DNA from: a virus
Lineage: Duplodnaviria > Heunggongvirae > Uroviricota > Caudoviricetes
DNA length: 19,134 bases
Virus record (IMG/VR): IMGVR_UViG_2690316344_000004
Reading direction: 5' to 3' (one strand)
This document shows, piece by piece, positions 1-3,000 of this stretch (position 1 is the stretch's first letter; every line of letters begins with the position of its first letter). Position numbers: made by a program.

Positions 1-3000
1 CCGGAATTGCCGTTTCCACTGCATCAGTTTCTGGTACTGGCGACGAGAGAGTATCAGTTGCGCTCTGATTTCTTCCTTCATCTTCAAACACGCCCTTTGT
101 AGTCAGGTATTCAGTAATGTATTTGTTCAGTGCCACAGGGTCTTTGTGAATGTCGATCGGACGTTCACGGACAAGGCCAAAAATAGTCTGGCGGTCGTAG
201 CGAAGGGCATCAGGCTGTTTGCGCATTGATGCCGAGATACGCTTCCAGTCTTCGCGGTCGTTGTCGATAACTTCATTTTTTGCCCAGCGATGGATGCTGC
301 CGTCAATGTTTCCGGCATCCACATCACCAGGCCAGAGAGCGTAGGCCAGTTCGTCATCCAGTGTTTTCCATGTCTGCTTGTATTCGCGATGAATGGCAGC
401 AATGACCGGGCTGATTTTTCCTGTTGAATTTTCAGTGTGCTGTTGATTGGTTCTGGCGCGGGCGAGATCAACAACAGACGTGTATTTTCCGGTTTCCTTG
501 CGTTCACCTTCGCGACGTTTTTTCCAGATGCGCATCTCTGCCTGAATTTCGGGCCATTTGGCACCAGGCTTACATTTATGCTTAACCCACCCGATGGCAT
601 GCAGCTTAAGCTCCGGATACATGGCGTTAACATCTGGCATTTTCATCAACGCTTCAACGATATGTCCGTCGAATGTTGCCATGTCTTCCTGCAACAATTC
701 CTGTGCGCTAATAACCATATCAACGGTGATGTTTTCACATGTGTCGAACTTAACCATGACAGCGTTCTGTACTTCAGGGGCCAGCTTGTCAAAAGTGACG
801 TTCATCGGATCGGATTCAGTCTCAACCGGGACAAAGGAAGCAGACTCCTCATCCCAGCGGTTTTCCTGCATATATTCAGCATCCCAGGAATCGAGGGCAG
901 GGCGGGGTATACCGGGTTTATCCTCGCAAACAAGAAATTTATAAGCGCAGTCCTGAGCAGCCGGATAATGTTCCAGGAATTGCCAGTGAAATTTTGCGCG
1001 GGCGCGACGTTCATCACCGGCTTCAATGGCAGTGGCTACAGCGACGGCACCTTCTTCCTTTATTGCCTGTTCGTCCGGAATGGCGGCGCAAATAAAGACT
1101 TTACTCATTTTGTTTTACCTCATTACAGATTTAAGGGTGAACAAATCCCTGCCATTGCTGGCATATAAGAATGAAACCGGATATTTATTACGGAACTGTT
1201 TTAAAGACCTGCCGGGATTTCGTTATTATCCTGGTGAATAACTTTATCGACCGGGTAACAGTTACCGGGAATTTTCTGTTCGGTTGCTGCAGTCACACAC
1301 TCCTGCATTGTCCTGTGAACACTGACTGCAATATCAACTGGCTCTCCGGAAACAAGAAAAACTGTCAGAACAAGTGCAAATGCTGTATTCATTGCCAGCA
1401 TCCTTTTTGTATCGGACGTAAACGGGCCAGCATTGAAAGAATGCATATTTTATTTAATAGCTCCCGTTCGTGTTTTCTCTTGTTAATGGCATCTTCAGTA
1501 AATACAGGGTTACTGATAGTGACACCAATTTCAAAACAACCTTCAGACGTATTAACGTTTGGTAATAACGTTTCCATTATCGCGTCCTCAACAATGAATT
1601 TTGTGATGCGGTGCCTGGTGCCTCCAGGTGACGTTAACCAGTTAACAATTAACGCCGGATACAGAGAATCCACCCATAACACTGTTTTTGGTTTTAACTG
1701 TTCCGCGTGCGCTCAGCCGCATTCACCGCATCACAAAATTCACTTTAAAAAGGGCGGCAGAGCAGTCACGGAGTAAAACTGATACCGCCAAACGTCACCA
1801 GAAAATTGATAACAGAGGGCGTTGCAGCGGGGTTGTCACTTAAGCGTATGGTCAACCTGACAACCCGGTGTCCTCAACGGGGGAAGGAATAACCCCGCCA
1901 TACTTACCGCCGCGCCATTTCGCGGATTGCCACAACCGGAAGCGCACGGTCGACGAAAATTTAACGACAGGCTATCTATGAACCAGCTACCTCGCCGTGC
2001 GCTTTCGCGTTATGGTCTGACTTTTCAGGGAAATATCCTTTCAGTAAACTGTCAGTGCCGGATTCTTATCCGTGTCCGGCGCACGACCACACGCTGTCAC
2101 GAGAGGTCTCCATTCTCAACCAGTAACCTCAATGGAGGATAAAATGTCAGAGCAGGAGTTAAAACTTGGTGCATGTTATTGTGTTCTCAAGGAGCTGGTA
2201 CACATGCTTCCATCTACTCAGTATCAACAGTTAGTTGGCAATTTAAATCAGCGAATCGAAGCTATGTTAAAATCTGATGGTTTTAATAACGTAGAAACGC
2301 TGATGCTAAAAAGATATCTTGATGGATTAATCAGATAACATTTTTTTACGGCGTTCATATTCGTTAATATTTATGAAGCCTGTTGCCAGAAGCAGTTCGT
2401 TAATTTCATGGTTGTTTGGCTGTTTCTGGCTCTTTGAGCTGGGATCTTCCACTTCTTTTTCTGCAAATTGTTTTGCTGTATCCTCTGTGCCATGGATATT
2501 TAAAGCTGTATCTGAAAACAGCCCAGTAAACGCATCGCGCACATTACGAGCCATATTATCAGTGTCTTTTTTTGTTACCGATTCCAATTCAAGTTCGTTC
2601 AGACGATGACGAAGTGTGTGTGCTGCAATCTCCTGGATTGAAGGAGGTAAATCTTTAAATTCCATCGTCAACCTCATCAGTCAGTGTTTCTTGCTAACCA
2701 GCGATGCGCGCCAGCTGCGGTTTTAAACGTTTTACTTTTGGTATACGTCATCGCGGTGAAGGTGCCGTCCTGGTTAGGGAACACACCGCATACCAGAGAT
2801 TCGTTGTTGCCAAGATCGATAGTATCCATGCTGACCTCATTTCCCCTTAACGCCGGGGTAGCGGAACAAAAACCTGCTGCATAGTTATTAAAGTTGAACC
2901 CTGCCGTCATGTTCTTACGCATCGGGCTGGCTACTTAACCCCTGACCACTGCCTGGTAACTCGAGGTATTGCCCTGTATTGTGTGGGACGGGATGGGTTG

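Follow-up and report, generated by a model that had tools for sequence, protein, structure and literature searches.

DicF, DicB and YdfD are a textbook example of how prophage genes control the division, the metabolism and the phage receptors of the host, and also the virulence of enterohaemorrhagic Escherichia coli (EHEC). In the Qin prophage of E. coli K-12, two short genes, ydfB and ydfC, lie between ydfA and the precursor of the DicF RNA. The virus record IMGVR_UViG_2690316344_000004 (IMG/VR; Caudoviricetes) contains a related locus with an open reading frame (ORF) of 112 amino acids (aa) in this slot, and a preliminary description of the DNA took that ORF for an ancestral gene of which K-12 carries a split version. 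What occupies the slot upstream of DicF, and how did it come to be there? We approached this question with the whole stretch of 19,134 nucleotides (nt), hereafter the window, in which positions 1201-2829 are the feature under study. This feature is very probably the promoter-proximal part of a PL-type early-left operon in a mosaic lambdoid prophage, where the known dicBF module stands beside an exchanged neighbour cassette.

The dicBF module and the segment beside it

The elements of the feature, with coordinates and strand, are as follows.

1201..1392, minus strand: ydfD, 63 aa, DUF1482 lysis protein (PF07358, 88 bits; 59 of 63 aa as in K-12 YdfD)
1389..1577, minus strand: dicB, 62 aa, cell-division inhibitor (PF05358, 127.4 bits, E 1.7e-37, residues 1-62 of 62)
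1752..1804, minus strand: DicF small RNA with its terminator hairpin (RF00039; T run at 1747-1751)
1805..2085, minus strand: DicF precursor, untranslated and conserved (inside the 96.5%-identical K-12 match)
2055..2082, no strand assigned: conserved 9-bp hairpin (GUGCCGGAU...GUCCGGCGC; predicted fold, stem also kept in K-12)
2122..2146, plus strand: leader AACCTCAATGGAGGATAAAATG with ribosome-binding site and start codon (115 exact matches in viral contigs)
2144..2338, plus strand: 64-aa ORF, convergent with the operon (phrog_4987, E 3e-49; WP_001295058.1 in RefSeq; annotated coding sequence in O104:H4)
2327..2665, minus strand: 112-aa ORF with a MEFKDL N-terminal domain and a variant-specific C-terminus (phrog_2151/1363/9419)
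2677..2829, minus strand: ydfA homologue (DUF1391) of 50 aa, with which the leftward operon begins (PF07151, 101.1 bits)

The identification of DicF, dicB, ydfD and ydfA in the preliminary description, and their homology to Qin, are borne out by Rfam and Pfam matches and by DNA identity to K-12 of 96.5% over window 342-2085 and 90% over 2686-2867. The DicF RNA matched RF00039 at 1752-1803 over model positions 1-52 of 52 with 76.7 bits (E 1.1e-15) against a gathering score of 48, and the Pfam cut-offs were 27 bits for PF05358, 25 for PF07358 and 27.3 for PF07151. Conservation of the RNA, as claimed in the preliminary description, holds when the Qin locus is aligned: every base of the DicF stretch, of the terminator stem (GGCGG...CCGCC) and of the TTTTT run that follows is the same as in K-12. 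DicF lies within the untranslated stretch upstream of dicB, which starts 175 nt downstream of the RNA. The ATGA overlap between the dicB stop and the ydfD start is present as described, at 1389-1392, and K-12 annotates the same 4-nt overlap. DicB is identical to its K-12 counterpart at 55 of 62 residues (89%), and the ydfA homologue at 43 of 50, with a ratio of non-synonymous to synonymous substitution (dN/dS) of 0.13.

In K-12, the polycistronic RNA starts at a promoter upstream of ydfA, no internal promoter having been found, and the DicF species of 190 nt and 53 nt are products of RNase III and of RNase E, respectively (PMC10448788). By homology, the precursor at 1805-2085 should contain the processing sites for both enzymes. 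Folded together, precursor and DicF are predicted to be more stable than shuffled sequence (z = -2.6).

The K-12 Qin dicBF operon has ydfA, DicF precursor, DicF, dicB, ydfD and an exonuclease remnant in the same order and orientation. It differs from the window in having ydfB and ydfC where the window has the 112-aa ORF and a convergent 64-aa ORF. Positions 2086-2685 are without a K-12 counterpart, and on this alignment the segment is a non-homologous replacement of ydfB/ydfC by the two ORFs. Two further differences are that the repressor and operators of the window appear to be of another immunity type than DicA/DicC, and that its exonuclease gene is uninterrupted by IS2 within the visible part.

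The whole cassette recurs in the ompW prophage of O104:H4/55989 (NC_018658.1, ~2.892-2.940 Mb; strain 2011C-3493), where window 1-2996 is matched at 99.6% identity. The RefSeq annotation of that prophage gives dicB, ydfD, DUF1391 and a 64-aa hypothetical protein, and its operon continues with exonuclease, excisionase and integrase genes. The immunity region at 2997-4049, however, is unrelated between the two, and elsewhere in the window the matches are patchy, at 85-97%; the window is thus a different mosaic from the O104:H4 prophage. The head, tail and lysis genes of this relative form a full set, one tail gene being frameshifted, and no structural genes were found in the 19-kb window. No phage or E. 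coli collection record holds the whole window, the best E. coli match covering 83% at 94.4% identity and the best phage 37%. By these comparisons the window is a typical lambdoid mosaic.

Prophages with dicF in O157:H7 (e.g. NZ_CP038302.1, 3.049-3.054 Mb) have the same layout: next to ydfA is a MEFKDL ORF, opposed by a short reverse ORF that starts after the same hairpins, leader, ribosome-binding site and ATG, and then come the DicF precursor, dicB and ydfD. They differ in the forward ORF, which has 212 aa and, behind the same N-terminus, another C-terminus, and in the reverse ORF, an unrelated one of 69 aa (phrog_4274). The stretch from DicF precursor through DicF and dicB to ydfD is also found in the phages Tritos, PhiR42_1, vB_EcoS-813R8, mEp460_ev081 and HannyBb, its 885 nt matching from end to end with 95-97% identity. 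In Escherichia phage Tritos, DicF is annotated, and K-12-type ydfB and ydfC, rather than the cassette, lie between ydfA and DicF.

The 112-aa ORF and its relation to ydfB and ydfC

If K-12 ydfB and ydfC were the two halves of a gene that is intact here, the 112-aa protein should align across both. Position speaks for this idea, the ORF being placed between ydfA and the DicF precursor; in length, too, it comes close to the 42 + 72 aa of the K-12 products. Yet when the translations of YdfB (42 aa) and YdfC (72 aa) from the RefSeq record were compared with the 112-aa ORF by BLASTP, neither gave an alignment even at E<=100, nor does its DNA align to K-12. The PHROG families are separate as well, YdfB belonging to phrog_2061, YdfC to phrog_1744 and the 112-aa ORF to phrog_2151/1363/9419. 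Furthermore, ydfB and ydfC exist as two genes in 2311 of the 5426 complete E. coli genomes that formed our sample, and also in phage Tritos, whose genome record is complete. The decisive evidence comes from two loci, L071 (which has a DicA repressor) and L019, in which ydfB is intact (42 aa) and a separate MEFKDL-family ORF follows directly downstream of it. Because intact ydfB coexists with such an ORF, and because the families differ, we conclude from the sequence comparisons that no split occurred: the 112-aa ORF occupies the ydfC position, and ydfB is absent from the window. Nor, on the same comparisons, is the ydfB-ydfC arrangement a decay product of K-12. We therefore give virtually no credence to an unsplit ydfB/ydfC ancestor. 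What survives of the original proposal is the ORF itself, at 2327-2665 on the minus strand; its placement over both K-12 genes does not.

The start of the ORF also needs revision. The TGATG at the ydfA stop had been read as translational coupling to the 112-aa ORF, but the ATG there (at 2677) opens a reading of 116 aa. The 13 aligned homologues begin with MEFK or MKFK (one with one extra M), the Salmonella copy is without the upstream ATG, and RefSeq starts the gene at the position equivalent to 2665. Thus, the real start probably lies at 2665, 9 nt past the ydfA stop, and the genes are adjacent without overlap. A GAGG motif is found 6 nt upstream of this ATG.

The MEFKDL domain, about 50 aa long, is strongly conserved: when 14 sequences are aligned, 23 columns are invariant over residues 1-49. 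Beyond it the family diverges in length, from 62 to 186 aa among the homologues found and to 212 aa in O157:H7. The match of the 112-aa ORF to phrog_2151 (E 1.8e-55) covers only profile positions 1-101 of 212, and that to phrog_9419 residues 1-51. The ORF thus lacks the full-length 212-aa architecture of phrog_2151, and its C-terminus is a variant common to Salmonella homologues. Relative to the Salmonella copy, dN/dS of the 112-aa ORF is 0.39.

A convergent gene and an exchangeable cassette

Contrary to how it had been portrayed, the region does not consist of one chain of leftward genes. The plus strand carries a 64-aa ORF at 2144-2338, missed in the preliminary description, which converges on the 112-aa ORF, overlaps its 3' end by 12 nt and has a GGAGG ribosome-binding site. 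Read on the other strand, the TAA stop of the 112-aa ORF is a Leu codon (TTA) of the 64-aa ORF; relatives have a synonymous TTG at that codon, which extends the forward ORF to 119 aa. The family of the 64-aa protein is very small, with 6 matches in a large profile search of 1.84 billion representative proteins, and homologues at 45% and 36% identity keep their length at 65-67 aa. Relative to the Salmonella copy, its dN/dS is 0.27, and values across the forward and reverse cassette ORFs range from 0.26 to 0.39. Purifying selection acts on both the 64-aa and the 112-aa ORF, and on this measure both look like real genes.

As to what the 64-aa protein might be, the AlphaFold2 (AF2) model (mean confidence score, pLDDT, 80) predicts a three-helix bundle, for which the fold search returned only non-specific matches to generic helical bundles. 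In a tblastn search of the phage collection the 64-aa ORF had no match; from the cassette, only the N-terminal 50 codons of the 112-aa ORF were matched, at 45-53%. None of the forward and reverse ORF types matched PADLOC or NCBIfam, or Pfam above threshold, and no literature was found for the RefSeq protein accessions of the cassette. A CTCCATT/AATGGAG hairpin that would mask the ribosome-binding site was considered and rejected, being absent from the predicted minimum-energy fold; the fold of the leader did not surpass that of shuffled sequence (z = -0.8).

The slot is polymorphic, and its edges are conserved. When viral contigs were scanned for exact copies of the 22-nt leader, 115 loci were obtained, 80 of which were taken into the comparison. 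Counted across these 80 loci, the window and the other loci examined, 119 leader matches precede four unrelated reverse ORFs of 69, 64, 61 and 80 aa. Each type of reverse ORF has its own forward ORF: 212 aa with 69, 112-138 aa with 64, 52 aa with 61, and 186 aa with 80. Common to all cassette types are two hairpins upstream of the leader on the plus strand. The outer one, the 9-bp hairpin at 2055-2082, precedes every cassette type, and K-12 homology resumes beside it, at 2085. In Salmonella loci the same hairpin forms the DicF-side edge of the cassette, the homology of locus L120 stopping just past it. In the complete E. coli genomes, the full window-type cassette is present in 152 of 5426, and the conserved N-terminal segment in approximately 830.

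The inner hairpin (window 2087-2103; also in loci L003, L019 and L071) keeps its ACACG/CGTGT stem between types, while its loop is flipped, TGACAG in one and CTGTCA in the other. The flipped loop looks like the result of a small inversion or template-switch event.

The cassette also occurs apart from DicF. A Salmonella element with a C4 antisense RNA and without DicF shares one DNA block with the window at ~97% identity; the block begins midway in the forward ORF, takes in the 64-aa ORF and extends as far as the outer hairpin, just past which homology is lost. In Salmonella enterica L125 (3001-4500; also L124 and L126), two cassettes stand in tandem, a 200-aa/69-aa pair followed by a 119-aa/64-aa pair, each with its own leader and hairpins. 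The L125-type element carries genes with a Mu-type helix-turn-helix and Phage_ASH, and dicF is not among its called genes.

How should the two cassette ORFs be understood? One alternative holds that the 212-aa phrog_2151 protein was truncated when a moron, the 64-aa ORF, inserted, that the 112-aa ORF is what remains of it and is decaying, and that only the 64-aa ORF is functional. RefSeq annotates just the first 50 codons, as an incomplete coding sequence; the phrog_2151 match stops at the middle of the profile; family lengths vary widely, several members looking frameshifted; and the stop shifts between 112 and 119 aa by a substitution that is silent in the 64-aa ORF. However, the C-terminal half (SQKQPNNHEINELLLATGF...) is retained in diverged Salmonella copies, the dN/dS of 0.39 applies to the whole 112-aa ORF, the GAGG ribosome-binding site is in place, and the ORF is intact in the 152 E. 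coli genomes with the full cassette. We consider decay unlikely. Still less likely, and in our view quite improbable, is that the 64-aa ORF encodes a phage-borne IraP-like anti-adaptor stabilising RpoS. All six family members match PF10796 below threshold (best E 9e-4), one Citrobacter homologue is labelled IraP by NCBI, hhalign against the IraP alignment gave E 4e-4 over 53 columns, and the related O104:H4 prophage encodes the anti-adaptor IraM. Against this stand the 14.4 bits of the 64-aa ORF at a Pfam cut-off of 23.2, the hhalign probability of 35% with 11% identity, a lack of BLASTP similarity, a search of the 1.84 billion proteins that returned no IraP, generic fold matches, and a query that is without the N-terminal 30 residues of IraP.

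Another possibility is that forward and reverse ORFs form a cognate pair, in which a variable C-terminal effector is matched to a small partner serving as immunity protein, antitoxin or regulator; the reverse gene might then be expressed in the lysogen independently of PL. Every C-terminal variant is accompanied by the same type of reverse ORF, partners stay together across the divergence of E. coli and Salmonella and occur as tandem units, and both genes are under purifying selection. The layout of a conserved N-terminus, a variable C-terminus and a small adjacent gene presumably resembles that of polymorphic toxin/immunity loci. However, the same linkage is equally expected if recombination is confined to the conserved flanks, PADLOC, NCBIfam and Pfam recognised neither partner, and the consensus scan did not find a promoter for the reverse gene. 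A cognate pair is therefore possible, if rather doubtful, and we would give a similarly low weight to the broader proposal that the segment between ydfA and the DicF precursor is one allele of a polymorphic mobile two-gene cassette whose products are a cognate effector and immunity protein, a toxin and antitoxin, or a lysogen exclusion function. Convergent transcription within the cassette might also modulate the output of DicF and dicB. Most likely, modules were exchanged in the ordinary lambdoid manner, within limits set by conserved sequence: cassettes would be swapped by recombination that takes place, at one edge, in the coding sequence of the conserved N-terminus and, at the other, in the leader and hairpins, which are likewise conserved.

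Operon context and implications for dicBF prophages

Upstream and downstream of the feature, the following elements define its context.

1..1108, minus strand: RecE/exonuclease VIII-like gene, N-terminal part, running off the window (O104:H4 equivalent annotated as exonuclease)
3011..3039, minus strand: candidate PL-like promoter TTGACA-17-TATAGT, embedded in operator repeats (11/12 consensus match)
3148..3624, minus strand: putative CI-type repressor, 158 aa (assigned by its position between the PL- and PR-like sites)
3692-3721: candidate PR-like promoter, flanking the repressor-sized ORF on its other side (consensus scan)

This arrangement has the features expected of a lambdoid PL operon: divergent promoter-like sites that flank a putative repressor, operators common to both, and leftward recombination and integration genes in the O104:H4 relative. 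A 23-nt perfect inverted repeat is common to the PL and PR regions (PR copy at 3676-3698), and a TTAGGC..CCTA motif occurs in five copies in these promoter regions. The 158-aa putative repressor had no match in Pfam. Positions 2997-4049, with the operators, the repressor and a YdaS/Cro-like gene, are without a match in the O104:H4 prophage or K-12; as judged by these alignments, the controlling repressor differs in immunity type from both K-12 DicA and the O104:H4 prophage. To the right of the immunity region lie the YdaS/Cro-like and YdaT-like genes and a replication gene. On the other side, the RecE-like gene region matches the K-12 ydfE pseudogene region at 96.5%.

According to our favoured explanation, transcription from the repressor-controlled promoter at 3039-3011 would run leftward through ydfA, the 112-aa ORF, the DicF precursor, DicF, dicB and ydfD, and onward into the RecE-like exonuclease gene; in the O104:H4 prophage, which is nearly identical here, it would also reach xis and int. 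Judging by the homology to K-12, excision of DicF from the polycistronic RNA would fall to RNase III and RNase E, with the terminator hairpin of DicF providing the 3' end. DicF is known to repress ftsZ and other targets, and DicB to inhibit division (PMC5069750); DicB is also reported to inhibit inner-membrane phage-receptor proteins (PMC6832061), and YdfD causes lysis via inhibition of IspG (PMC8835842). In this phage, DicF may thus pair with ftsZ and other mRNAs, DicB would block septation, and YdfD would lyse the cell through IspG.

The gene identities, the homology boundaries, the polymorphism of the cassette and the purifying selection are results of the present analysis, whereas the pattern of transcription, the RNA processing and the protein functions are carried over to this phage by analogy with work on K-12. 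Some points weigh against this explanation. DicB has 7 of 62 residues changed relative to K-12, mostly near the C-terminus, and its activity is assumed. RefSeq flags the O104:H4 equivalent of the 112-aa ORF as a C-terminally incomplete coding sequence, and therefore this ORF may not be functional. Finally, no sigma-70-like promoter was found on the plus strand near the 64-aa ORF by consensus scan.

Other genes of the window lie farther to the right, on the plus strand. A hok/sok type I toxin-antitoxin locus spans 9319-9643, with a sok match to RF01794 of 114.7 bits and a Hok/Gef ORF (PF01848) at 9431-9643. Positions 13738-14254 hold three tRNA genes, with anticodons CAT (Ile in the annotation of the O104:H4 relative), TCG (Arg) and TCT (Arg), followed by a match to the STnc100 small RNA of 139 bits; as in the O104:H4 prophage, this block lies downstream of the Q antiterminator region. 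Two successive ORFs of 425 and 617 aa at 14477-17544, overlapping by ~60 nt, resemble sialate esterases (DUF1737 and SASA). As both match one and the same esterase gene in the O104:H4 prophage (85-88%), a partial duplication in tandem is suggested. In that prophage, the IraM gene (L122 34346-34681) adjoins the esterase gene; it is relevant to the cassette only via the weak IraP-like signal.

Part of the sequence at 1201-2829 is matched in 4746 of the 5426 E. coli genomes. The dicBF genes have been reported from several prophage contexts with non-conserved neighbour genes, and in four copies in EHEC (PMC5069750; PMC7873438). As of 2016, DicF and DicB were not known from any sequenced phage (PMC5069750); through the records of Tritos, PhiR42_1, vB_EcoS-813R8, mEp460_ev081 and HannyBb, a phage context of the module is already known. 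Given these records and the annotation of the near-identical O104:H4 prophage, this copy of the module by itself adds nothing new. No description of the cassette polymorphism was found in the literature searched, and it may amount to mosaicism only.

In conclusion, our analysis corrects a tempting account of how the locus evolved, in which the 112-aa ORF had broken up into ydfB and ydfC. The slot upstream of the DicF precursor is instead a hot spot for interchangeable convergent gene pairs. If these pairs are functional units, or if the expression of DicF and dicB is tuned by their antisense transcription, they would account in part for the way in which dicBF behaviour varies between strains, which makes the cassette a modest lead.

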